Source of the DNA: Pseudomonadota bacterium | GTDB taxonomy: Bacteria > Desulfobacterota > Binatia > Binatales > Binataceae | Reading direction: 5' to 3' | Length of the DNA stretch: 64,000 bases | NCBI GenBank assembly: GCA_021323675.1 | Contig: JAJPKP010000071.1 | Coordinates: 64,969 to 128,968 of the forward strand | Shown: one piece after another, positions 9,333 to 41,274 of the stretch | Numbering within the stretch: the first letter of the stretch is position 1 | Layout: every line of letters begins with the position of its first letter | Made by a program: the position numbers and the translations under genes | Notes under the pieces: generated by a model | What the model was told of the DNA's origin: nothing | Databases searched by the model: none | The model's input: the letters and a program-made list of their open reading frames with translations, nothing else

Positions 9333-9503
9333 CGCAGTGTCTCCCAATGCAGATGTTCGTTCATAGTCGATGAAGAACAAATTTTCGAGAGTTCGCCCGC
9401 CTGCTGAAGACGTGCCTCGGGGCGGACGCGGCTCCCGCTAACCGATGCGGCGGCGAATACGCTATGGTCCCGCGTGGACAATCTCACTCAGGGAGATATT
9501 TCT

Positions 9504-10259
9504 ATGAGGCTTGCGGGAAAGGTTGCGCTGATTACCGGCGCCGGCTCGGGAATGGGACGCGCAGCGGCATCGCTGTTCGCGCGCGAAGGGGCGAAGGTCG
9601 CCGCGGTCGATATAAATGAAGCATCCGCCAAGGATACCGTGGCGGCCATCGCGCGTGAGGGCGGAGAAGCGTTCGCGATGCGGGTGGACGTTTCCAACTC
9701 CGAGGACGCGCGCGCGATGTGCGACGAGACGGTGCGGCGCTTCGGCGGCCTGGACATCCAGTACAACAACGCAGGCATCGAGGGTGAAGGCGGGTTTCTC
9801 GCCCAGCTCAGCGAGGAAGCTTTTGACCGTGTAATCGCGATCAACCTGCGCGGCGTATGGCTGGGAATGAAATACGCCCTGCCCCACATGATCGAGCGCG
9901 GCGGAGGATCGATCATCAACACGGCGTCGGTCGCCGGACTGGTCGGTATCAAAGGTGCCGCGGCGTATTGCGCCGCCAAGGCGGGCGTTATCTCGCTCAC
10001 CCGCGTCGCCGCGATCGAGTACGGCCGCTACAAAATTCGCGTGAACTGCATCTGTCCGGGAGTGATCGACACTCCGATGGTGGAGCGGGTGTCGGAAGAA
10101 GGCGGCGTCACCGCGCAGGCCAACGATCGCCTCTCGGTGCTGGGGAGAATCGGCAAGCCCGAGGAGATAGCGCGAACCGCCCTGTTCCTTGCCAGCGACG
10201 AGGCGGGATTCGCCACCGGCGCTCCGTTCGTCATCGACGGCGGATGGGTCGCGCGCTGA
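9504..10259 (+). CDS. SDR family oxidoreductase
   Basis: MRLAGKVALITGAGSGMGRA. ATG 9504 is preceded by GGGAGA. Confidence 0.85.
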   Translation: MRLAGKVALITGAGSGMGRAAASLFAREGAKVAAVDINEASAKDTVAAIAREGGEAFAMRVDVSNSEDARAMCDETVRRFGGLDIQYNNAGIEGEGGFLAQLSEEAFDRVIAINLRGVWLGMKYALPHMIERGGGSIINTASVAGLVGIKGAAAYCAAKAGVISLTRVAAIEYGRYKIRVNCICPGVIDTPMVERVSEEGGVTAQANDRLSVLGRIGKPEEIARTALFLASDEAGFATGAPFVIDGGWVAR

Positions 10260-10274
10260 GCAGGAGAGACTTCG

Positions 10275-11045
10275 ATGCCCACCGCGATAAGCAGGCTTCA
10301 AGGCAAAGTTGCGATTGTAACCGGGGCCGCACAGGGGATCGGACGCGCGATTGCGATGCGGCTTGCGGCTGAGGGCGCGGCCGTCGCGATAGCCGATGTG
10401 CTGGAGGACGCGGCGGAGCGCACGGCCGCGGAAATCCGGTCTTCGGGAGCAAAGGCGATTGCCGTCGCGCTCGATGTGACGAAATTCGACGATGCGGTCC
10501 GGGCGGCGGACATGGTCGAAAAAGAACTCGGCCCTATCGACATCCTCGTGAACAACGCGGGATGGGACAAGCTCGAGCCCTTTGTGAACAGCTCGCCCGA
10601 GACCTGGGACAAGATCATCGCGATTAACTACCGCGGGGTTCTCAACTGCTGCCGCGCGATCGCGCCAAAGATGCAGGCGCGCAGCTCCGGAAAGATCGTA
10701 TCGATTGCCTCGGACGCGGGTCGCGTCGGTTCGACTGGAGAGGCGGTATACGCGGGGTGCAAAGCCGGCATCATCGGCTTTTCCAAGACGCTCGCCCGCG
10801 AGCTCGCTCGCAACCGGATCAACGTGAATGTCGTATGCCCCGGTCCGACCAAGACCGCGCTGTTGCGCGAAGCGATGGCGGGGCGCGAGGGAGTCCTGGA
10901 GGCGATGGCGAAGGGAATTCCGTTTCGGCGGCTGGGGCAGCCGGAGGACCTCGCGGGCGCGGTAGCGTTTTTGGCTTCATCCGACGCGGACTACGTGACC
11001 GGCCAGGTGCTGAGCGTGAGCGGAGGTCTCACGATGGCGGGTTAG
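10275..11045 (+). CDS. SDR family oxidoreductase (FabG-like 3-oxoacyl reductase type)
   Basis: LQGKVAIVTGAAQGIGRA with the NNAG and YxxxK motifs. AGGAGA Shine-Dalgarno. Confidence 0.85.
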   Translation: MPTAISRLQGKVAIVTGAAQGIGRAIAMRLAAEGAAVAIADVLEDAAERTAAEIRSSGAKAIAVALDVTKFDDAVRAADMVEKELGPIDILVNNAGWDKLEPFVNSSPETWDKIIAINYRGVLNCCRAIAPKMQARSSGKIVSIASDAGRVGSTGEAVYAGCKAGIIGFSKTLARELARNRINVNVVCPGPTKTALLREAMAGREGVLEAMAKGIPFRRLGQPEDLAGAVAFLASSDADYVTGQVLSVSGGLTMAG

Positions 11046-11122
11046 AGCGGCTCGCCTTGATCGCCGGCGATGCCTGAACTATCGTTCAGAACGTCAGCTT
11101 TGATAAACGGAGCGTTGTCCGC

Positions 11123-11863
11123 ATGGCCGCAGGCGAATCCTACACCGCACTCAAATTTTCCGGACCCGATGGGCTGCCCGCGGAGTACAAGGATCTGCTG
11201 GTCCGGATGCTGTCGATCCAGTCGCGCATCGAGTCCGAATATATGCTGGCGCCGGAGCGCACTCTGATGAAGCCGCTCGCGATGGCGCCGACCGCGGAGG
11301 ACAAGGCCGAGTACGCGGCGTTCTGGTCCGACGAGGTCCGCCATGCCAGCTACTGGATGAAGCTGCTCGAAGACCTTGGGGTTCACGTCGATGACGCCTT
11401 CATGGCGACACCGATGCCTATCTACATCTTCGAGATGCGCGATCGGGCGGAGGATTGGATCGAGTACGGCCTGTTCAGCTTTTTCGCGGACCGCCAGGGC
11501 GCGTACATGGGTTACGAGTGGGTGGGATGCTCGTACGAACCGCTCGCGCGGATCGCGGACCGCGTGCATAAGGAAGAACTGGGGCACGCCGCGTTCGGCT
11601 ACAAGCTGCTGCGGCGCAATCTGCAGCGCGACCCCGAGCACGGCCGTGAAAAGCTCATCCACTATCTGAAGAAGTGGTACCCGGCGGGGCTGGATATGTT
11701 CGGCAAGTCGGGATCGAAGCGCCAGCACGAGTTCATGCGATGGGGACTCAGGCGGCGCACCAACGAGCAGATGCGCGAAGAGTTTGAAGAGGAAGTGAAC
11801 GCACTTCTCGATCGCCTCGAAGTTCCGATTCCGGATGCGACCGCGGGCCGCCGCTTCCTGTAG
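11123..11863 (+). CDS. ferritin-like diiron protein of the phenylacetate-CoA oxygenase PaaA/PaaC family (short form)
   Basis: Two E-x2-H diiron motifs (DEVRH and KEELGH) positioned as in PaaA, but only 246 aa, and no paaBDE partner genes nearby. Confidence 0.6.
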   Translation: MAAGESYTALKFSGPDGLPAEYKDLLVRMLSIQSRIESEYMLAPERTLMKPLAMAPTAEDKAEYAAFWSDEVRHASYWMKLLEDLGVHVDDAFMATPMPIYIFEMRDRAEDWIEYGLFSFFADRQGAYMGYEWVGCSYEPLARIADRVHKEELGHAAFGYKLLRRNLQRDPEHGREKLIHYLKKWYPAGLDMFGKSGSKRQHEFMRWGLRRRTNEQMREEFEEEVNALLDRLEVPIPDATAGRRFL

Positions 11864-11914
11864 CACAGCCTTGAGCCGGGCCATCGCGCCCGGTTGCCCG
11901 GGGAGGAAAGCACC

Positions 11915-12580
11915 TTGAAGAAGTCAGCAGCCGAGCCGCTTGTTCCGCGGCGAATCGCGAAAGTCAAATCCGCCGCCCGGCAGCCAAGTCCGGACGAGCG
12001 CTACGATGCGAACATCGATCATATCCTGCGCGCGGCGGCGGCGGTCTTCGCGGAGAAGAGCTTCGGGCTCGCATCGATAAGAGACATCGCCGCCCACGCG
12101 CACATCTCCTTTCCGCGCATCTATTACTACCTGCGCAACAAGGAGGAATTGCTTTATCTCATCTCGCGCCGCGCATTCGAGGAATTGCTGAGGCGCGCGG
12201 ACGAAGCGGCGCGCGGCGCTCCCGATGCCGCCGCGCGGCTGCGCAAATTTATCGCAGGCCATCTCGAATACCACATGGACAATCTCGCCGAGATGAAGGT
12301 GCTGGTGCGCGAGGCCGACTCGCTCTCCGGGCGCTACTCGGCCGACATCGCGCGGCTCAAGCGCGACTACTCGCGGCTGTGCCGCAGGATAATCGAGCAA
12401 TTCGCGGAAGAAAGCGGCCATACGCTGGATCGCGAGCGAAGCCGAATTCTGACGTCGCTTCTGTTCGGGTCGATGAACTGGTTTTACACCTGGTACGAAC
12501 CGTCGCGCGATTACGAGCAGCGCTCGCGCATCATGGACGAAGTTTTTCGGATGGTCGCCGGATCGATAGCGGAGCACTAG
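11915..12580 (+). CDS. TetR/AcrR family transcriptional regulator
   Basis: N-terminal HTH (FAEKSFGLASIRDIAAHAHISFPRIYYYLRNKEEL). Start taken as TTG 11915 with a GGGAGG Shine-Dalgarno 8 nt upstream; the ORF could alternatively begin at TTG 11894. Confidence 0.75.
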   Translation: MKKSAAEPLVPRRIAKVKSAARQPSPDERYDANIDHILRAAAAVFAEKSFGLASIRDIAAHAHISFPRIYYYLRNKEELLYLISRRAFEELLRRADEAARGAPDAAARLRKFIAGHLEYHMDNLAEMKVLVREADSLSGRYSADIARLKRDYSRLCRRIIEQFAEESGHTLDRERSRILTSLLFGSMNWFYTWYEPSRDYEQRSRIMDEVFRMVAGSIAEH

Positions 12581-12586
12581 CGCCGA

Positions 12587-14254
12587 ATGATCGACGGCTG
12601 CACGCCATATCCCGCGGAATTTCGCGATCGCTACATTCGCGATGGATATTGGCGCGCCGAGACCATCTTCGATGCGGTGGCGGATTCGGCGCGCCGCAAT
12701 AACGATCGGCTCGCCGTAGTCGATTCGCACCGCTCTTTGACCTTCGGACAACTGCTGGAGGAATCGCGAAGGTTTCGCGCGACGATGGCGGCATGCGGCC
12801 TGAGCCGCGGCGACCGGGTGATAATCCAGCTCCCCAATTGCGCGGAATTTGCGAGCCTGACGCTGGCCTGCTTTGAACTGGGCGTCATTCCAGTGATGGC
12901 GCTGCCGGCGCTCCGGCGCGCGGAACTCGAGCATCTGGCTAAGCTTTCGGCGGCGAAGGCCATCGCGATCGTGCCCGAGTATCGAGGCTTCGATCATGCG
13001 GGTCTGGCGCGCGAGTTGATGCGCGATTGCCCCTCTTTGGAGCGCATCTTCAGCGTTTCCGCGGCGCCGGGATGCGTGGAGCTGGGCGGCGCTCCTTCGG
13101 CGCATGCGCCCGCAAGGGTTGCAGGCGGCGATGCGTTCGCGGCAGCCCTTTTCCTGCTGTCCGGCGGAACGACGGGGCTTCCCAAGCTGATTCCGCGAAC
13201 CCACGCCGATTACCTGTACAACGCGCGGGCGGCATCGGAGGTCTGCGGGCTCGACGGGTCGAGCAGAATTCTGATTGCGCTTCCGGCCGAACATAATTTT
13301 CCACTGGCGTGCCCCGGAATGATCGGCGCGATGCTGACGGGAGCGGCGACGGTGTTTGCGCAATCGACGCGGGCGGCCGACCTCGCGGCAACGATCGCGC
13401 GCGAGCGCATCACGCACTTCCCATGCGTGCCCGCCCTGGCGATCGCGCTGTTGGAGCTGCCGGAGCGCGACCGCGAACAACTCGCGCCGCTGCGGGTGAT
13501 AACCGTCGGCGGCCAGCGCCTTCAGGAACCCACGGCGCGCGCGCTCAAGCTTGCCTGCCCCTGGCTCACGGTCCAGCAGGTGTTCGGAATGGCGGAAGGC
13601 CTGCTTTGTTACACTCGTCTTGACGATCCGGAAGATATCGCGTGCACGACGCAGGGCCGTCCTCTTTCGCCCGGCGATGAAATCCGCATCGTCGATGCGT
13701 TCGGCCGCGATGTCCCACAGGGCGAACCAGGCGAGCTGTGGTGCCGCGGACCTTACACTATTCGCGGCTACTATCGAGCGCCCGAGGTTAACCGCGATGC
13801 GTTCAGTGCGGACGGTTTCTACCGCACCGGCGATATCGTGCGCATGACGCCTTCGGGCAACATCACCGTCGAAGGGCGCATCAAGGATCAGATAAATCGG
13901 GGCGGCGAGAAAATCAGCGCCGAAGAAGTCGAATCGCACCTGATCGCGCATCCGGCGGTTTCGTCCGCCGCGGTGGTGGCAATGCCCGATCGCACGCTCG
14001 GCGAGCGCGCCTGCGCGTACGTAACGCTGCGGCCGGGCGCGGCCCTCACCCTGGACGCGATTCGCGAGTATTTGTTGAGCCGCGGCCTGGCGCGCTTCAA
14101 ATGGCCGGAACGCCTTGAGATCATCGACGCGATGCCGCTGACGAACGTGGGAAAGATCAAGAAGGCCGAGCTTCGACGCGACCTCGAGACTCGGCTGGAT
14201 GTCGAGGAGCAGGCCGGGCGGCGCCGCGACGCGCGCGACGAGAAGCGCGCGTAG
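12587..14254 (+). CDS. aryl-acid adenylating enzyme, DhbE/EntE-like ((2,3-dihydroxybenzoyl)adenylate synthase family)
   Basis: Close sequence match to DhbE/EntE throughout (YIRDGYWRAET, GGTTGLPKLIPRTHADYLYN, QQVFGMAEGL, YRTGDIVR, GGEKISAEEVE). No aryl-carrier-protein gene is adjacent. Confidence 0.85.
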   Translation: MIDGCTPYPAEFRDRYIRDGYWRAETIFDAVADSARRNNDRLAVVDSHRSLTFGQLLEESRRFRATMAACGLSRGDRVIIQLPNCAEFASLTLACFELGVIPVMALPALRRAELEHLAKLSAAKAIAIVPEYRGFDHAGLARELMRDCPSLERIFSVSAAPGCVELGGAPSAHAPARVAGGDAFAAALFLLSGGTTGLPKLIPRTHADYLYNARAASEVCGLDGSSRILIALPAEHNFPLACPGMIGAMLTGAATVFAQSTRAADLAATIARERITHFPCVPALAIALLELPERDREQLAPLRVITVGGQRLQEPTARALKLACPWLTVQQVFGMAEGLLCYTRLDDPEDIACTTQGRPLSPGDEIRIVDAFGRDVPQGEPGELWCRGPYTIRGYYRAPEVNRDAFSADGFYRTGDIVRMTPSGNITVEGRIKDQINRGGEKISAEEVESHLIAHPAVSSAAVVAMPDRTLGERACAYVTLRPGAALTLDAIREYLLSRGLARFKWPERLEIIDAMPLTNVGKIKKAELRRDLETRLDVEEQAGRRRDARDEKRA

Positions 14255-14284
14255 CCGCAATTCGAACTATCGGGAGAGACGGCA

Positions 14285-14986
14285 GTGGATGTGCAAAAAG
14301 GACTTCGCGAGCTTGATGGATTGATCCGGCGGCTGGAGCGCAACAATCGCACCCTGAAATCGCATCCGACCATCGAGAAGATCGAACGCGGCGAGCTGAC
14401 GATGCCGCAGTTGCGGCATTGGGCCACTCAACTCTTCGTCGGCAACAAAGGCCACAACGCGAAGATCCTCGGGCTCATCTACGCCAAATGCGACGATTTC
14501 CCCGCGCGCAAGGCGATCGTCGAAAACCTGATCGAAGAGGAACTCGGCCGCGTCTCAGGCGTCAACCGGTCGCATCCCGAACTCTACCTCGAATTCGGCG
14601 AAGCCATCGGCATTCCGCGCGACGCGCTTCTGCACGCGGCGATGACGCCCGATGCGACAGCGATGATGCATTGGATGTACTGGCTGGCCGATTCGAAGCC
14701 CTGGTACGTGACGCTGGCGGGCATCAGCCTGGGATCGGAGTTGTTCAATCCCGATGCCTATGTTCGGGTGATCGACGGGCTCAAGCGTCATTACCATCTT
14801 TCGGATGACGCCCTGCTCTTCTTCTCGGTTCACGTGAAGGTGGACAAGGATCACGGCGATTCGAGCGCCGGCTCGATCTTCCGTGCGATCCCGGAAAGCG
14901 CCGCCGCCGAGACACTGTGGGCGGTGGAGACGCACATCGAGTTCATGCGCCGCCTCTGGTCGGATATCGACCCGCCCGCCGCGTAG
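14285..14986 (+). CDS. CADD/PqqC/TenA-like haem-oxygenase-like diiron oxidase (HDO) family protein
   Basis: Alignable to the chlamydial CADD protein: KCDDFPARKAIVENLIEEELG...SHPELY and H-x3-D-x2-H (HVKVDKDH) supply the six metal ligands. GTG start with a GGGAGA Shine-Dalgarno. Confidence 0.7.
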   Translation: MDVQKGLRELDGLIRRLERNNRTLKSHPTIEKIERGELTMPQLRHWATQLFVGNKGHNAKILGLIYAKCDDFPARKAIVENLIEEELGRVSGVNRSHPELYLEFGEAIGIPRDALLHAAMTPDATAMMHWMYWLADSKPWYVTLAGISLGSELFNPDAYVRVIDGLKRHYHLSDDALLFFSVHVKVDKDHGDSSAGSIFRAIPESAAAETLWAVETHIEFMRRLWSDIDPPAA

Positions 14987-30797: not shown

Positions 30798-31415
30798 CTA
30801 TTCGGGCTCGTTCTTCGGCGGAGGACCAAGCCCCGCCCGCGCCAGATCGCCGGGCGTGTCCAGGTCCAGGGTGACGCCCGGATCTTCGACGTCAACGTAT
30901 GCGACCCGAGCCGGGTCCGCATTGACAACCCATCGCGCCCCCTGCTCTTCGGGCGCATCCAGCAGCTCGCCAAAGACTTCCTTCGCGAAGAGGACCGGAT
31001 GCCCCCTGCGGCCGGCATAGCGCGCTATCACGATCGGATATCGCCGCGATGCGAACTCATCGGCAACCGCCTGGAAGGTCGAAGCGAGGACCAGGGGATG
31101 ATCAGCCAGATGGACAATCACCGCGGCCGCATCGGCATCGATCGCCCTGAGAGTGCATTTCAGCGACGAAAGCTGGCCCCGCTCAAAGCCGGGATTGTGA
31201 ACTGTCTTCACCCGATGGTCGGAGGGAATCTCGGCCCGTACGCGTTCTCGATGCGCGCCGGTGACGACGATCACATCGCGCACAACTTCGAGCATCGTGC
31301 GCAACGTTCGCCGGAGAAACGTTTCGCTATCGATCTTGAGGAGCGGCTTGGGAAATCCCATCCGGCGCGATTCGCCCGCCGCCAGCAGAACCCCTTCGAT
31401 TGGGAGCCGCGCCAT
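30798..31415 (-). CDS. MobA-like NTP-transferase domain protein (molybdenum-cofactor cytidylyltransferase MocA-like)
   Basis: LLAAGESRRMGFPKPLL N-terminal signature. Confidence 0.7.
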   Translation of the reverse strand: MARLPIEGVLLAAGESRRMGFPKPLLKIDSETFLRRTLRTMLEVVRDVIVVTGAHRERVRAEIPSDHRVKTVHNPGFERGQLSSLKCTLRAIDADAAAVIVHLADHPLVLASTFQAVADEFASRRYPIVIARYAGRRGHPVLFAKEVFGELLDAPEEQGARWVVNADPARVAYVDVEDPGVTLDLDTPGDLARAGLGPPPKNEPE

Positions 31416-31427
31416 GACGGCCGCTCG

Positions 31428-32579
31428 TCAAGCGGAGGGTTTGAGGCGGCCCAGCTTAACGCCCAGGTTGGCCGCATCGCGCGCGCCCGATCGCCGCTCA
31501 CGCACAATTTCCGCGATTATCGAGACCGCGATCTCTTCGGGAGTCTCCGCCGCGATATCCATCCCGAGCGGAGCGTGCACCTGGTCGAGCAGCTCGCGCG
31601 CGATGCCGGCTTCTTCGAGCCTGTCCAGCGTCGCCTTCACCCGCCGGCGCGATCCGATCATCCCGATAAAGGCTCCGCGCGAATGCCGCAGCGCGGTACG
31701 CACCACCTCTTCGTCGAAGGAATGGCCGCGGGTCACGGAGACCAGGTAGCAATGGCGGTCGAGCGCCAGGCTTTCGATCGCCGCGGCAAAGGGCCGTACC
31801 ATTATCTGATCGGCGGATGGGAACCGTTCGCGATTGGCGAACGACGCGCGGTCATCGATCACCGTCACATGAAATCCCAGCATCGATCCAAGCGCGGCGA
31901 GCGGCTGCGCAATATGGCCGGCTCCCGCGATCACGAGGCGTTGCGCTCCCGAGACCGGATCCAGAAACATCCGCGGCGCATCCCCTTCGACACGAGTAAC
32001 AGGATTTACGCCGCCGGTGTCGCTGATTTCGATCAAAGCCGGCACGCCATCCATGGTGCGCGCCACCAATTGGACCATCGCGCGCCGCGGAATCTCCAGA
32101 GCCGGCGCGAGGCGGCTTTCGCCGTCGGACGAATCGACGATCGATTTTGCGCCAACGGGATCATCCTGGCGCGGGCTGTGCACAAGGGTCAGCAGCGAAG
32201 CGGGCTGGCTGCGCTCGGCGGCGGAAGCAAGCCGCCTTGCAATATCGAGATCGCTGCCGGGCGCCCATATCGCGACGAACACATCCATGATGCCGCCGCA
32301 GGTGCCGATTTGCTGTTGGTCGAAGTCGCCGGTGAGATCCACTTCGGTCATGCGGGCGCCCTGCCCTTCATCGAGCAACAGCCGCGCCTTGCGAAAGACC
32401 TCGGCCTCGCCGCATCCTCCGCCGATAGTTCCGAACTGGCCGTCGTCGCGAACAATCATCTTCGCGCCGACTTCCCTGGGCGTGGAACCGCGTACGTTCA
32501 CCACGGTGGCGAGGGCGAACTTCCTGCCGCTTTCAAGGGTGCGGACGGCTTCGGGCCAAATCTGATCGGGTCCCATCAT
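31428..32579 (-). CDS. XdhC/CoxF-family molybdo-hydroxylase maturation factor
   Basis: XdhC_CoxI N-domain (ALATVVNVRGSTPREVGAKM) and a Rossmann-like XdhC C-domain (LVIAGAGHIAQPL). Confidence 0.8.
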   Translation of the reverse strand: MMGPDQIWPEAVRTLESGRKFALATVVNVRGSTPREVGAKMIVRDDGQFGTIGGGCGEAEVFRKARLLLDEGQGARMTEVDLTGDFDQQQIGTCGGIMDVFVAIWAPGSDLDIARRLASAAERSQPASLLTLVHSPRQDDPVGAKSIVDSSDGESRLAPALEIPRRAMVQLVARTMDGVPALIEISDTGGVNPVTRVEGDAPRMFLDPVSGAQRLVIAGAGHIAQPLAALGSMLGFHVTVIDDRASFANRERFPSADQIMVRPFAAAIESLALDRHCYLVSVTRGHSFDEEVVRTALRHSRGAFIGMIGSRRRVKATLDRLEEAGIARELLDQVHAPLGMDIAAETPEEIAVSIIAEIVRERRSGARDAANLGVKLGRLKPSA

Positions 32580-32617
32580 GCTTCTGATTTAACCGTATCA
32601 GAAAAGTCCCGCTCCGG

Positions 32618-32920
32618 TTACATGCCCAGGCGTCCGAGGATCGCGTTGGCCTTGACCAGGTTTTCCTCCGCTTGATCGTAGGCGCCGGCGGCCATCGCCT
32701 TCTCGGCGCTGGCATCCAGCTCCAGCGCCTGATGCAGTTGCGCGCGCACGGCGGGATCGGTCGGGCCTTCGTCGGAAAGATGGGCGAGCTTGAGCGATAC
32801 TTGGCGTTCGAGGCTGCGAAGCTCAGGCGACGGTTGCCTCTTCAGGTCAGCCGCGAAACTCGTCGCGGCTATCGCGGCGATGCCGGCCGCAATCGCAAGC
32901 ATCCTCAGCGGACCGCGCAT
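32618..32920 (-). CDS. small secreted hypothetical protein
   Basis: Signal peptide (MLAIAAGIAAIAATSFA); 3-nt gap to the upstream peroxiredoxin stop. Confidence 0.45.
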   Translation of the reverse strand: MRGPLRMLAIAAGIAAIAATSFAADLKRQPSPELRSLERQVSLKLAHLSDEGPTDPAVRAQLHQALELDASAEKAMAAGAYDQAEENLVKANAILGRLGM

Positions 32921-32923
32921 CGT

Positions 32924-33370
32924 TCAACCTCCGATCGCGTCGGCCAGCACGCTGGCCGGATGATCCCTCGGGTCCACCCGATCGTAAACGCGCGCGATAC
33001 GCCCCTGCTCGTCGATAAGGAAGCTGACCCGGTTCGGCCACTTCGCCTTCGCGTCGCCGCACGCGCCGTAGGCAAGCGCCACGGTGCGGTCGAGGTCGCT
33101 AAGCAGCGGGAACTTGAAATCGTTCTTGCGGGCGAAGGCGGCGTTGGCTTCGACGCTGTCGAAGCTCACTCCGAGGATCTGGATCTTGTTTTCGTCAAAA
33201 TAGTTCTGTTGGTCGCGGAACCCGCGGCCTTCGATGGTTCAGCCAGGGGTATCGGCCGCGGGATAGAACCATAGCAGCACCTTTTTGCCGCGCAGATCCT
33301 TGAGCGAGATGGTTGTTCCGTCGTGGGCCGCCAGAGAGAAATCTGGCGCGAGGTCTCCTTGCTTGACCAT
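32924..33370 (-). CDS. Bcp/PrxQ-type peroxiredoxin with an in-frame TGA (candidate selenocysteine) at the peroxidatic position
   Basis: ATG 33370 with a GGAGGTG Shine-Dalgarno 5 nt upstream, translating MVKQGDLAPDFSLAAHDGTTISLKDLRGKKVLLWFYPAADTPG-TGA(33241-33239)-TIEGRGFRDQQNYFDENKIQILGVSFDSVEANAAF...LIDEQGRIARVYDRV. The Bcp fold is continuous across the TGA, which occupies the T-P-G-[C] position. The ORF track shows only the C-terminal 81 aa. Confidence 0.6.
33211..33229 (-). other. SECIS-like hairpin 9 nt downstream of the in-frame UGA
   Basis: mRNA GGCCGCGG-GUU-CCGCGACC: 7 bp with one C·A mismatch, and an apical GGUUC resembling the GGUC loop of bacterial SECIS elements. Confidence 0.4.
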
Positions 33371-33406
33371 TGTGCACCTCCGCCGAGCGGTCGTCGGCCG
33401 CTCGAT

Positions 33407-33892
33407 TCAGTTAAGCATCGCGCGCAATCGCGCGAGCATCGAAAGACATCCCTGTTCGCCGGGCTGAATTTCCAGCGCCCGCTCGAGCTCGCCGATAGCC
33501 GCGGTGATCATTCCCTTCGCCGCGTAAACGCGCCCAAGGTTCATGAAAGGAAAGTGGCGCGGTTCGTAGCGCGGCGCGTGCTTGGCTTTTTCAAGCCAGG
33601 GAATCGCGCCGTCGAGGTCTCCTTTCGCGATCAGATATGCTCCTATGTCGTTGTAAGGATTACCATAGGACGGGTCGACTTCGATCGCCCGCCGGCATTC
33701 CGCAATCGCGTCATCGATTCGCCCCATCCCTTCGTAAGCCCATCCGCGAAACGTATACGCCTCGGCGGTGGGGAAGATTTCGATCGATTTGGTGTAGAGC
33801 TCGATCGCGCCGGCAAGGTCGTTGCCCATGTGCCGCTGATAACCGGCATTCCACAGTTCCAGCGCGCGCTTCTTTCGTTCGTCCTCGCTCAC
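33407..33892 (-). CDS. TPR-repeat protein
   Basis: Three to four TPR units (AYTFRGWAYEGMGRIDDAI...). Confidence 0.7.
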   Translation of the reverse strand: MSEDERKKRALELWNAGYQRHMGNDLAGAIELYTKSIEIFPTAEAYTFRGWAYEGMGRIDDAIAECRRAIEVDPSYGNPYNDIGAYLIAKGDLDGAIPWLEKAKHAPRYEPRHFPFMNLGRVYAAKGMITAAIGELERALEIQPGEQGCLSMLARLRAMLN

Positions 33893-37753: not shown

Positions 37754-38737
37754 TCATTCATCGACCGGCATCGGTTCAATCTTCAGGGAATCGAACAGCT
37801 TGCGGTCGCGGTTCAGCTCCGGGTTGGCGGTGGTCAGAAGCTTGTTTCCGACAAAGATCGAGTTGGCGCCCGCGAGATAGCAGAGCGCCTGGGCCTCGTC
37901 GGTGAGGCTTTCGCGGCCCGCCGACAGCCGCACCATCGAAAGCGGCATCGTAATTCGGGCGGCCGCGATGGTTCGAACCAGCTCGAAGACTTCGGGGCGT
38001 TCGCAGGCGCCCAGCGGCGTGCCCCGAGTCCGCGCCAGCAGATTGATGGGAACGCTTTCGGGATGCGCAGGAAGCGTGGCCAGGGTGTGGATCATTCCGA
38101 TCCGGTCCTCGCGCGCCTCGCCCATCCCGACAATTCCCCCGCAGCACACCTTGATGCCGGCGTTACGGACATTCGCGAGCGTATCGAGCCTGTCCTGATA
38201 GGTTCGCGTGGTTACGACCTTGCCGTAGTACTCCTCGGAAGTGTCGATATTGTGATTGTAGAAATCGAGGCCCGCGGCTTTCAGGCGCCGGCTCTGCTCA
38301 GCCGTCAGCATCCCGAGCGTCGCGCAGGTCTCGAGCCCCAATCGCCGCACACCTTCGACCATGGCGCACACCTTTTCAAGGTCGCTGTCGCGCGGATTGC
38401 GCCAGGCGGCGGCCATGCAGTAACGCGTGGCGCCGTTGGCCTTGGCGCGGGCCGCTTGAGCCAGCACGGCATCAAGAGGCATCAGCTTTTCCGACTTGAC
38501 GCCGGAGTCGAAGTGCGCGCTCTGCGCGCAATAGCCGCAATCTTCGGGGCATCCACCGGTCTTGATCGAGAGCAGAGTGGACAGTTGAACCTGGTTCGGC
38601 TTGAAATGCCGGCGATGAACCGTCTGCGCGAGATAGATCAGATCGGACAATGGCATCTCGAACAGCGCCGCGATTTCGGCCCGCGCCCAATCGTGGCGCG
38701 GCCTGGCCTCATCGGCCGGAAAGACACATTCCGCCAT
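37754..38737 (-). CDS. bioB: biotin synthase
   Basis: Radical-SAM motif CPEDCGYC and full BioB similarity. Confidence 0.9.
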
Positions 38738-38773
38738 CGCAAAATACTCCTTTGCAGGCTGCTCTCTATATGA

Positions 38774-39913
38774 CTAGTAGTGATTCAGGCGGGCCAGCTT
38801 GTCGGCGTGAAAATTCGCGTCGCCAAACAACTCCTGCCCCACGCGCACCCGTTTCATGAACAGGCCGGCGTCGAATTCGTCGGTCATCCCGATTCCGCCG
38901 TGCATCTGGACGCCCTCCTGCACGGCCAGGGTGGCGACGCTCCCCGCCTTGGCCTTGGCCATCGAGACTACCGCCCCGGCGTTTTCGAAGGATTCGTCCA
39001 GGGTTTGCAGCGCCTTGAGCACGGCGGATCGCGCCAGTTCGAGCTCGCAGTAAAGATGGGCCGCGCGATGCTGCAGCGCTTGAAATTCGCCAATCAGTTT
39101 GCCGAATTGCTTGCGCTCCCGGAGATAGGTGACGGTCCGCGCGAATATTTCATCCGCCGCGCCGAGCAATTCAGCGGCGATGGCGGCGCGTCCGGCATTG
39201 AGAGCGCCTTCCAGGGTTTTCCATCCCTGGCCGGGCGTTCCAAGAATCGCATCGGCCGCAACCGCGACGTTGTCGAATTCGAGCCGCGCCGAATTGTGCG
39301 CATCGACCATCGAAGTGCGCTCGACCTTGAGTCCCTTTGCCTTCCCGTCGACCAAAAAGAGGGTCAATCCCCTTTCTTCGCCGGGGGACCCCGACGTGCG
39401 CACGCCGACGATGATCAAATCGGCCACGTGGCCGTCGATCACGAAGGTTTTTGCGCCGCTTAGAACAAACCCGTTTGCCTTGTTGGAGGCTTTGAGCGCC
39501 GTTTTTTCGGGGCGATGCTTCGCGGCCTCATCGATGGCGAGCGTGGCGATCAGGTCACCGGCTGCGATGCGGGGCAGAAAGGCCTTCTTCTGCGCTTCGC
39601 TCCCCGAGCGCACCAGCGCGGTCGCGGCCACCACCGACGTCGCGAGCAGAGGCGACGGCGTGAGCGTATGCCCGAGTTCTTCCATCACGACGCCGGCCTC
39701 TACATATCCGAGGCCAAGGCCATCGTAATCGGGCGGCACCAGAATTCCCGCCCATCCCATCTCGGCAAATTCCTTCCAGAGTTTGCGCGAAAAGCCGACG
39801 GAATCAGGCGTGTCGCGCAGTTGGCGCAGATGAGCGATGGGAGCGTTCTTGCTCAGAAAACTCCGCGCGTTGTCGCGGAGCATCGATTGTTCAGAGGTAA
39901 GTACAAGAGCCAT
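38774..39913 (-). CDS. acyl-CoA dehydrogenase family protein
   Basis: ACAD N-terminal, middle and C-terminal domains (GGIGMTDEF). Confidence 0.85.
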   Translation of the reverse strand: MALVLTSEQSMLRDNARSFLSKNAPIAHLRQLRDTPDSVGFSRKLWKEFAEMGWAGILVPPDYDGLGLGYVEAGVVMEELGHTLTPSPLLATSVVAATALVRSGSEAQKKAFLPRIAAGDLIATLAIDEAAKHRPEKTALKASNKANGFVLSGAKTFVIDGHVADLIIVGVRTSGSPGEERGLTLFLVDGKAKGLKVERTSMVDAHNSARLEFDNVAVAADAILGTPGQGWKTLEGALNAGRAAIAAELLGAADEIFARTVTYLRERKQFGKLIGEFQALQHRAAHLYCELELARSAVLKALQTLDESFENAGAVVSMAKAKAGSVATLAVQEGVQMHGGIGMTDEFDAGLFMKRVRVGQELFGDANFHADKLARLNHY

Positions 39914-39949
39914 CTTTGCAAAACCAATTTTTCGGCAAATTACGCGGGG

Positions 39950-41134
39950 CTATGCGCCCGGGAGATTAAGGATACGTTTGGCGATGATGTTGAGCTGAAT
40001 CTCGCTGGTGCCGCCCTCGATCGAGTTGGCCTTCGATCGCAGCCATGACCGCACCGTGAAGCCGTCGCGCGAGCGCGGCCCCTCCCATTCGAGGGCCTCG
40101 GATCCGCCCGCCGCCACCATCAACTCCAACCGGCGCTTGTTCAATTCCGCGCCGTAGTATTTGAGCATCGAGGAGACCGCGGGATGCGCCTGTCCGGTCT
40201 TGAACAGGTCGCCGACTCGATCGAGCGTGAGCGCGAAGGCCCATGAATCGACCTCGAACGATGCGATCTGCGCCCGCAGCACAGGGTCCGCCAGTCTGCC
40301 ATCCTCCGTCCCCACCGTATCGGCGGCGACTTCACCGAGCGAGCGATGCCGCCCGCCGGTCATCCCCATTCCACCGATCATCTCGCGCTCGTGAGTCAGC
40401 AGGAATTTCGCGATCTCCCATCCCTTGTTCAACTGGCCGACGAGATTTGCCTTGAGAACCTGCACATCCTCGAAGAACGTCTGGCAGAAGGGAGACTTGC
40501 CCGAGATCAGAGTGATAGGCGAAGTCGAGACGCCGGGGCTTTCCATGTCGAAGAGAACAAAGCTGATCCCCTCGTGCTTGGGCGCCTTCGGATCCGTCCG
40601 CACGAGGCAGAAGATCCAGTCAGCCTTGTCGGCATACGAGGTCCAGATTTTCGATCCGTTAACGACGAAGTAGTCGCCGCGATCCTCGGCGCGCGTCTGC
40701 AGAGAGGCGAGGTCGGAACCGGATCCAGGCTCCGAGTAACCCTGGCACCATCGAATTTCGCCGCGCGCGATCTTGGGCAGATGCTCGCGCTTTTGTTGCT
40801 CGTTGCCGTACTTCAGCAGCGCCGGCCCGAGCATCCAGATGCCGAAGCTGTCGAGCGGCGAGCGGCAGCCGAGCGCGCGCATCTCCTCGCGCAAAATCTT
40901 GGCTTCCTCGTGCGAAAGACCACCGCCGCCATACTGCCGGGGCCATTCGGGAACGGTCCAACCCTTCGCCGCCATCCGCTCCAGCCATACGCGCTGTGCC
41001 TCGGACTTGAAGACCCATTTGCGTCCGCCCCAGCAGGTGTCTTCCTCGCTCTCGGGCGGCTGGCGCATCTCGGCCGGGCAATTCGCCTCGAGCCATGCGC
41101 GGGTTTCCTTGCGAAAGGTTTCCAGATCGGCCAT
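39950..41134 (-). CDS. acyl-CoA dehydrogenase family protein
   Basis: ACAD fold (CQGYSEPGSGSDLASL, EGGTSEIQLNIIAKRIL). Start placed at ATG 41134 (MADLETFRK) with an AGGAGA Shine-Dalgarno; the ORF track uses GTG 41173. Confidence 0.8.
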   Translation of the reverse strand: MADLETFRKETRAWLEANCPAEMRQPPESEEDTCWGGRKWVFKSEAQRVWLERMAAKGWTVPEWPRQYGGGGLSHEEAKILREEMRALGCRSPLDSFGIWMLGPALLKYGNEQQKREHLPKIARGEIRWCQGYSEPGSGSDLASLQTRAEDRGDYFVVNGSKIWTSYADKADWIFCLVRTDPKAPKHEGISFVLFDMESPGVSTSPITLISGKSPFCQTFFEDVQVLKANLVGQLNKGWEIAKFLLTHEREMIGGMGMTGGRHRSLGEVAADTVGTEDGRLADPVLRAQIASFEVDSWAFALTLDRVGDLFKTGQAHPAVSSMLKYYGAELNKRRLELMVAAGGSEALEWEGPRSRDGFTVRSWLRSKANSIEGGTSEIQLNIIAKRILNLPGA

Positions 41135-41274
41135 TTGTTCCGCTCTCTCCTGAAATCGAGTTTCGGACGCCACAGTTTGCCATGTCCTGCGCGGTTAATT
41201 CTACGGGAGACGAACGGCGGCTTTGACGTGCAAGGGCACTTGTTGGCTATATTCACGGCGGGAGAGAGACAGCG

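Follow-up and report, generated by a model that had tools for sequence, protein, structure and literature searches.

A hairpin directly downstream of an in-frame UGA is a probable SelB-binding SECIS element in a peroxiredoxin gene of a Binataceae-like lineage

The SECIS element of E. coli fdhF is a stem-loop that lies about 9-12 nt after the UGA, with a G-U in its small apical loop and a G+C-rich upper stem. Bacterial elements are captured by the bSECIS model of Zhang and Gladyshev (summarised in PMC13188914), in which the apical loop has 3-9 nt and the upper stem 4-16 bp, a G is among the first two loop positions and is usually followed by G or U, 16-37 nt separate the UGA from the apical loop, and the minimum free energy is at most -7.5 kcal/mol. 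Remnant ("fossil") SECIS structures have also been described 3' of Cys codons after selenocysteine (Sec)-to-Cys conversion (PMC1794560). Sec-containing peroxiredoxins and bacterial SECIS elements are both already well known; what is new at the locus described here is a member in an uncultured Binataceae-like lineage.

The locus lies in a 64-kb stretch of DNA, the whole of which was analysed and is called the window below. It contains a peroxiredoxin (Prx) gene on the minus strand (32924..33370), which runs from an ATG at 33370 to a stop TGA at 32926-32924. Its translation gives an AhpC/TSA protein of 148 residues with a single internal TGA. This in-frame UGA (33239..33241, minus strand), which we read as Sec, is codon 44, at the peroxidatic position in the motif P-A-A-D-T-P-G-U-T, and orthologues carry either TGA or a Cys codon there. 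A Shine-Dalgarno-like GGAGG (33377..33381, minus strand), 6 nt 5' of the ATG, presumably serves the gene. With Cys put in place of the stop, Prx scored 120.6 bits against Pfam AhpC-TSA (PF00578). The top NCBIfam match was the Bcp thiol peroxidase PRK09437, at 125.9 bits and under its cut-off of 140, and the PrxU equivalog NF040737 gave only 43.7 bits against a curated cut-off of 270 bits. Prx thus belongs to the BCP/PrxQ branch rather than to the PrxU equivalog.

The first-pass annotation had described a GC-rich stem of 7 bp with one C·A mismatch at 33229-33211, capped by an apical GGUUC and beginning 9-11 nt after the UGA. The sequence is as described, and RNAfold draws the hairpin in a 56-nt piece (33190-33245). 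Behind the UGA comes a spacer of 9 nt (ACCAUCGAA, 33230..33238, minus strand), which encodes Thr-Ile-Glu. It is followed on the same strand by the 5' arm GGCCGCGG (33222..33229), the apical loop GUU (33219..33221) and the 3' arm CCGCGACC (33211..33218), which includes the closing G-C pair by way of a UUC codon. The arms form seven standard pairs, with C33227 opposite A33213 as the mismatch. In the loop, G33221 supplies the third position of a rare Gly codon (GGG) and U33220 the first of a Phe codon; the earlier GGUUC is obtained when the closing G-C pair opens, and the loop is GUU otherwise. The upper stem and loop coincide with the 12 nt of codons +5 to +8 (CGC GGG UUC CGC, 33215..33226, minus strand).

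This hairpin is located in the coding region, directly after an in-frame UGA that is aligned with Cys in homologues. It has a loop of 3 nt that starts with GU, an upper stem of 5 bp, a total distance of 17 nt from the UGA to the apical loop (33238-33222), and an energy of -8.9 kcal/mol for the 19 nt by themselves, which places it within the bSECIS model on all four counts. When we scanned 400 random TGA triplets of the window with the same model (as implemented: loop of 3-9 nt, upper stem of 4 bp or more, a G at loop position 1 or 2, 16-37 nt from the UGA, -7.5 kcal/mol or below), 39.5% were followed by a compliant hairpin, and behind 33% there was a hairpin that equalled or exceeded this one in stability. 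Membership by the bSECIS model alone is therefore weak, and the claim is carried by the comparative data below.

Two checks proposed in the first-pass annotation came out against it or empty. The folding energy of the 56-nt piece is no better than that of dinucleotide-shuffled controls (z = -0.06), and a 111-nt piece (33170-33280) gave z = -0.99. Since compliant hairpins follow about 40% of random TGAs, the shuffle z-score is an invalid test for so small an element in DNA of 62% G+C. A bacterial-SECIS covariance model search also lent no help, as Rfam had no match in the window at gathering score. At E ≤ 10 the region 32900-33420 gave only chance matches to miRNAs and snoRNAs, one of which, mir-492 (E = 1.2), lies over the hairpin. 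On single-sequence evidence the hairpin is not above chance.

The hairpin also has a competitor in its own transcript. An upstream segment, CCCGCGGCC (33254..33262, minus strand; codons Pro-Ala-Ala), is the perfect complement of GGCCGCGGG (33229-33221), that is, of the 5' arm plus the loop G. In the minimum-energy fold of the 111-nt context the 5' arm pairs with CCCGCGGCC and the base-pair probability of the hairpin is 0.0. We rejected this long-range pairing with 33262-33254 as a conserved feature, because the codons involved vary synonymously and the local hairpin survives in the minimum-energy fold of 21 of 27 orthologues. Capture of the SECIS 5' arm in whole-transcript folds occurs in this window only, and the complementarity is probably a chance match. 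Once the UGA occupies the A site, the segment would be within or behind the ribosome. With its C·A mismatch, its competing upstream complement and no lower extension, the window hairpin is a weak variant of the family's element. The palindrome was considered separately as a dispersed repeat; this was ruled out by the single exact copy of CGCGGGTTCCGCG and by near-matches at chance level (18 observed, 14.9 expected).

To compare the element among relatives, we used 91 loci encoding Prx relatives, obtained by scanning metagenome contigs as well as contigs from one genome per species. The closest, with up to 84% identity, are from Binataceae or "Deltaproteobacteria" metagenome-assembled genomes and from soil metagenomes. 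The catalytic codon was readable in 85 orthologues, with TGA in 58 and Cys (TGC/TGT) in 27. Because the peptide seeds of the scans do not cover the hairpin peptide, there is no ascertainment bias at the hairpin codons. The codon comparison uses the 28 distinct Sec-form and 16 distinct Cys-form sequences that have the peptide EGRGFRD in common. Changes among the Sec-forms, whose pairwise nucleotide distances average 0.31 and reach 0.49, were counted by Fitch parsimony on a neighbour-joining tree.

Codons +5 to +8 read CGC GGG UUC CGC in all 28 Sec-forms, with zero parsimony changes each, so that the 12 nt of CGCGGGUUCCGC carry no synonymous change across 28 divergent sequences. The other 35 fully conserved degenerate codons underwent 2-12 changes each (mean 6.5), and per-residue means of 10 for Arg, 7.6 for Gly and 3.2 for Phe put the expectation for these four codons at about 31 changes. 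They are the gene's only run of conserved degenerate codons in which the Sec-forms show no synonymous variation. The flanking codons do vary (GAR 14/14, GGN 4/7/15/2, GAY 24/4), and synonymous sites in the spacer vary freely. GGG makes up about 10% of codons at other conserved Gly columns, and yet the loop-G site is G in 30 of 30 Sec-forms. G33221 is therefore invariant although it is a free synonymous third position and, as the first loop nucleotide, unpaired.

The Cys-forms are polyphyletic, forming about five lineages among the Sec-forms. At the loop codons the 16 Cys-form sequences have GGC (13), GGG (2) or GGT (1), followed by UUU (14) or UUC (2). GGG is thus found in 28/28 Sec-forms vs 2/16 Cys-forms, as is UUC, and the two codons occur jointly in 28/28 vs 1/16 (Fisher p = 7e-11, ignoring phylogeny). 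All Cys-forms except L010 replaced one or both codons, usually with GGC UUU, and in doing so lost the loop G and the closing G-C pair. The exception (L010:3130-3171) keeps the complete hairpin with GGG UUC and is an apparent fossil SECIS; two further Cys-forms, L007 and L054, have each kept a single diagnostic codon. The two CGC codons do not vary in the Cys-forms either (16/16), which may be due to a strong CGC preference of those lineages or to lingering structure. Constraint on the synonymous sites of the hairpin is Sec-specific.

Sec- and Cys-forms also differ next to this core. Codon +4 is GGU in 15/28 Sec-forms vs 2/16 Cys-forms, and GGU gives a U-A pair instead of C·A; in the wider set of Sec-form orthologues the mismatch position is U, and so paired, in 18 of 30. 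The hairpin with this common U-A variant folds at -14.0 kcal/mol. Two differences were seen upstream of the UGA: the Gly codon at -1 (33242-33244, minus strand) is GGC or GGU in 26/28 Sec-forms and GGA in 14/16 Cys-forms, and residue -6 (33257-33259, minus strand) is Ala in 22/28 Sec-forms and Glu in 12/16 Cys-forms. These could reflect UGA-decoding context effects or adaptation of the active site.

The first-pass annotation had also made conservation of the structure in orthologous Sec-Prx genes a point on which its reading would turn, and here it held. We aligned 30 distinct Sec-forms with the window's hairpin type, for which RNAalifold recovers exactly the helix first proposed. There are no insertions or deletions between the UGA and the hairpin, G21 and U22 of the loop are invariant, and the helix is kept in register in 29 of the 30. 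Paired cells amount to 92.9% vs 31-51% in controls with the partners slid by 1-3 columns. Changes in the helix are of wobble type only (G-C/G-U, C-G/U-G) apart from two double changes, both from the other-register sequence L027. Compensatory covariation in this hairpin type is close to nil, and the structure is backed by conservation and wobble changes only. Coding leaves few free sites, and a near-absence of double changes is what one would expect with most stem positions fixed by the protein. Across all relatives, a bSECIS-compliant hairpin follows the catalytic codon in 46/47 distinct Sec-forms (median -13.1 kcal/mol) vs 9/22 Cys-forms.

Some relatives have a different peptide at this site and a hairpin nonetheless. 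In a group with EGCGYRD the stem is unchanged and the loop is GUA. The distant Sec-form L027 (L027:3112-3153; peptide EAVEFNG) has a hairpin of its own, GCCGUUG-AGUU-CAACGGC, which stands at the same distance from the UGA but one register off, and its loop again contains G-U. Sec-Prx genes of Kofleriaceae and related Myxococcota (L018, L020-L026, L073-L080, L086) form another helix at columns +18 to +38, GGAUUC-CGUGAUC-GAAUCC, with a 7-nt loop. This helix lies on the same Gly-Phe-Arg-Asp codons and makes use of GGA, CGU, GAU and CGA, an unusual choice of codons in a G+C-rich genome. Over 16 sequences its pairing is 99%, with one covarying pair (C-G/U-A), and it suggests SECIS turnover inside one gene family.

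Taken together, the data point to the hairpin at 33229-33211 very probably being the SelB-binding SECIS of a Sec-containing, BCP/PrxQ-type Prx gene, with the role of SelB inferred. This rests on the hairpin accompanying the UGA, decaying where the UGA has been replaced, and placing a G-U 18-19 nt after the UGA. In the proposed mechanism, a ribosome arriving at the UGA (33241-33239) would allow the mRNA just beyond its entry channel to refold into the stem CGCGG/CCGCG, lengthened by two G-C pairs beneath the mismatch, with G-U exposed in the loop some 18-19 nt past the UGA. SelB would bind this stem-loop through its C-terminal winged-helix domains and, competing with release factor 2, bring Sec-tRNA(Sec) to the A site. 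The peroxidatic residue of Prx would then be selenocysteine. The ribosome geometry assumed for the hairpin is likewise inferred.

The same association with the UGA would be seen if the element were Sec-linked without being a SelB site, for example a hairpin that acts as a pause or roadblock, slowing the ribosome or getting in the way of release factor 2 at the UGA, or an mRNA-stability element. Ribosomes in general could be held up by a stable hairpin at the entry channel, and there is some constraint on stem stability, as UUC is favoured over UUU and GGU is preferred at codon +4. Against this, an unpaired loop G would be needless in a pure stability element but is invariant, the position and the GU loop fit the consensus recognised by SelB, and we know of no SelB-independent Sec insertion in bacteria. 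We therefore regard such an element as improbable.

Less probable again, and in our view very unlikely, is a hairpin that is a functionless by-product of coding. Arg-Gly-Phe-Arg-Asp in GC-rich codons (CGC GGN UUY CGC GAC) is itself palindromic, and its CGCG...CGCG core is partly forced wherever CGC is the preferred Arg codon. The z-score near zero, the compliant hairpins after 39.5% of random TGAs, the CGC...CGC retained in 16/16 Cys-forms and the compliant hairpins still given by 9/22 Cys-forms are all as such a by-product would have them. However, coding does not account for the fixation of the rare GGG and of UUC in 28/28 divergent Sec-forms, when all other conserved Gly, Phe and Arg codons vary, nor for these two codons changing once UGA becomes UGC or UGU, and the hairpin is present also in orthologues with other peptides. 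The by-product explanation is already largely refuted.

That the UGA is a real stop, in a pseudogene, a split gene or an assembly error to which the hairpin is irrelevant, is for practical purposes already refuted and has next to no probability: public gene calls do divide the locus into products of 43 and 81 residues and the window has no Sec machinery, but TGA occupies exactly the same codon in 58 orthologues from many independent assemblies, the 104 downstream codons are conserved as protein with synonymous sites free to vary, and the window's sequence is identical in three assemblies. In these public assemblies the locus is L092:3523-3969 (GCA_037025385.1, contig JBAIHN010000073.1), L093 and L094. 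That the protein is conserved 3' of the UGA while synonymous sites vary was seen in the orthologue comparison, and since the 104 codons are under protein-level purifying selection in dozens of TGA-forms, we conclude that the UGA is read through. TGA is also the terminator of many ordinary genes in the window, which indicates site-specific recoding at 33241-33239 and not a genome-wide reassignment of the codon. The two called products both match AhpC-TSA, and a gene called as two in this way is a selenoprotein unrecognised in public annotation.

We looked around the locus for Sec machinery and for further selenoprotein genes whose loops could be compared. ARAGORN found no tRNA, and hence no tRNA-Sec, within the 64 kb, and Pfam annotation of about 46 window proteins gave no SelA, SelB or SelD; selA, selB, selC and selD are presumably present elsewhere in the genome. 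Neither a scan for hairpins after TGA nor a search, based on GC3, for pairs of ORFs in one frame with a TGA between them revealed a second selenoprotein gene in the window. Two short-chain dehydrogenase (SDR) genes at 9474-11045 (plus strand) stand in one frame with a TGA (10257-10259) and five codons between them. We rejected this tandem pair (9474-10259 and 10275-11045) as a second Sec site, as each gene is a complete, independent SDR. The search for TGA-split ORF pairs in the 91 related loci yielded Prx genes and adjacent-gene junctions only. Finally, a covariance model built from the 30 Sec-form hairpins (R1) had its sole match in the window at the Prx site (62 bits; next best 12.6 bits), and in 335 kb of related loci all of its matches were homologous Prx sites; R1 is dominated by coding conservation and is no general SECIS detector.

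The neighbourhood of the gene has several features of its own. The intergenic gap between an upstream TPR gene, whose stop is at 33409-33407, and the Prx Shine-Dalgarno sequence contains an inverted repeat, CGAGCGG-CCGACGA-CCGCTCG (33384-33404, minus strand), with no T-run after it. In at least three relatives (L033, L046, L053) synteny extends to the TPR gene upstream of Prx. Three genes follow Prx on the same strand (30798-32920, minus strand). The first (32920-32618) encodes a protein of 100 residues that has a signal-peptide-like N-terminus and matches nothing in Pfam, the second (32579-31428) a member of the XdhC family and the third (31415-30798) a MobA-like nucleotidyltransferase. The XdhC and MobA-like families are linked to molybdenum-cofactor maturation. 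About 60 GC3-supported ORFs of the window end in roughly 28 TAG, 20 TGA and 13 TAA codons, counted by eye and with some spurious ORFs included. TGA is normally the dominant stop in DNA of 62% G+C, and a window in which TAG is commonest is unusual. There are also runs of genes in one frame separated by single TAG codons, at 11078-14986 (plus strand) and 37754-41194 (minus strand).

The hairpin variants and the Cys-forms can be joined in a wider reading, which we put forward as possible but rather doubtful. It would have at least two non-homologous SECIS solutions arise on the conserved Gly-Phe-Arg-Asp codons, namely the GUU/GUA triloop at +13 to +31 and the Kofleriaceae helix at +18 to +38, together with about five independent Sec-to-Cys conversions in which exactly two synonymous sites, those of the loop G and of the closing G-C pair, decayed step by step. 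In that case the Prx family would amount to a natural series of mutants in which the determinants of SelB recognition in uncultured phyla are mapped. The window's weak, maskable variant, with its C·A mismatch and upstream complement, might then tune the efficiency of Sec insertion.

The locus matters in several ways. A recoding signal is identified for a selenoprotein gene that public calls split into 43 and 81 residues, and a Binataceae-like soil bacterium must accordingly decode selenocysteine. The series of Sec- and Cys-forms singles out G-U in the loop and the closing G-C pair as the nucleotides of importance. Selenoprotein gene finders still struggle to tell a Sec-UGA from a stop-UGA, and the series could serve as a training or test case for them. 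In G+C-rich genomes, folding z-scores neither validate nor refute a bacterial SECIS, whereas synonymous-site conservation can. Understanding of the mechanism is unchanged by the finding, which is a well-supported but ordinary example.

We conclude with how the element and its gene compare with known systems. The first-pass annotation likened the hairpin to SelB-binding bacterial SECIS elements such as that of fdhF, and the likeness stands. As in the fdhF element, the hairpin starts shortly after the UGA, exposes a G-U and has a G+C-rich upper stem, and it is presumably read by the C-terminal domains of SelB near the mRNA entry channel. Unlike fdhF, with its GGUC loop, the window has GUU (or GGUUC), and there is no detectable sequence similarity between the two. 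The window hairpin also differs in having no conserved bulged U and no lower helix that includes the UGA, and its C·A is not a conserved irregularity, being replaced by a U-A pair in 18 of 30 relatives. Parts of the hairpin are retained in Cys relatives, much like the remnant SECIS structures reported after Sec-to-Cys conversion (PMC1794560); this concerns the relatives, since the window gene has UGA. Like other Sec-containing peroxiredoxins (PF00578, TxxU), the window Prx combines an AhpC/TSA domain and a PxxxTxxU motif with orthologues that contain Cys. In contrast to PrxU of Eubacterium acidaminophilum, it stands on the BCP/PrxQ branch, and its host is an uncultured, Binataceae-like lineage.
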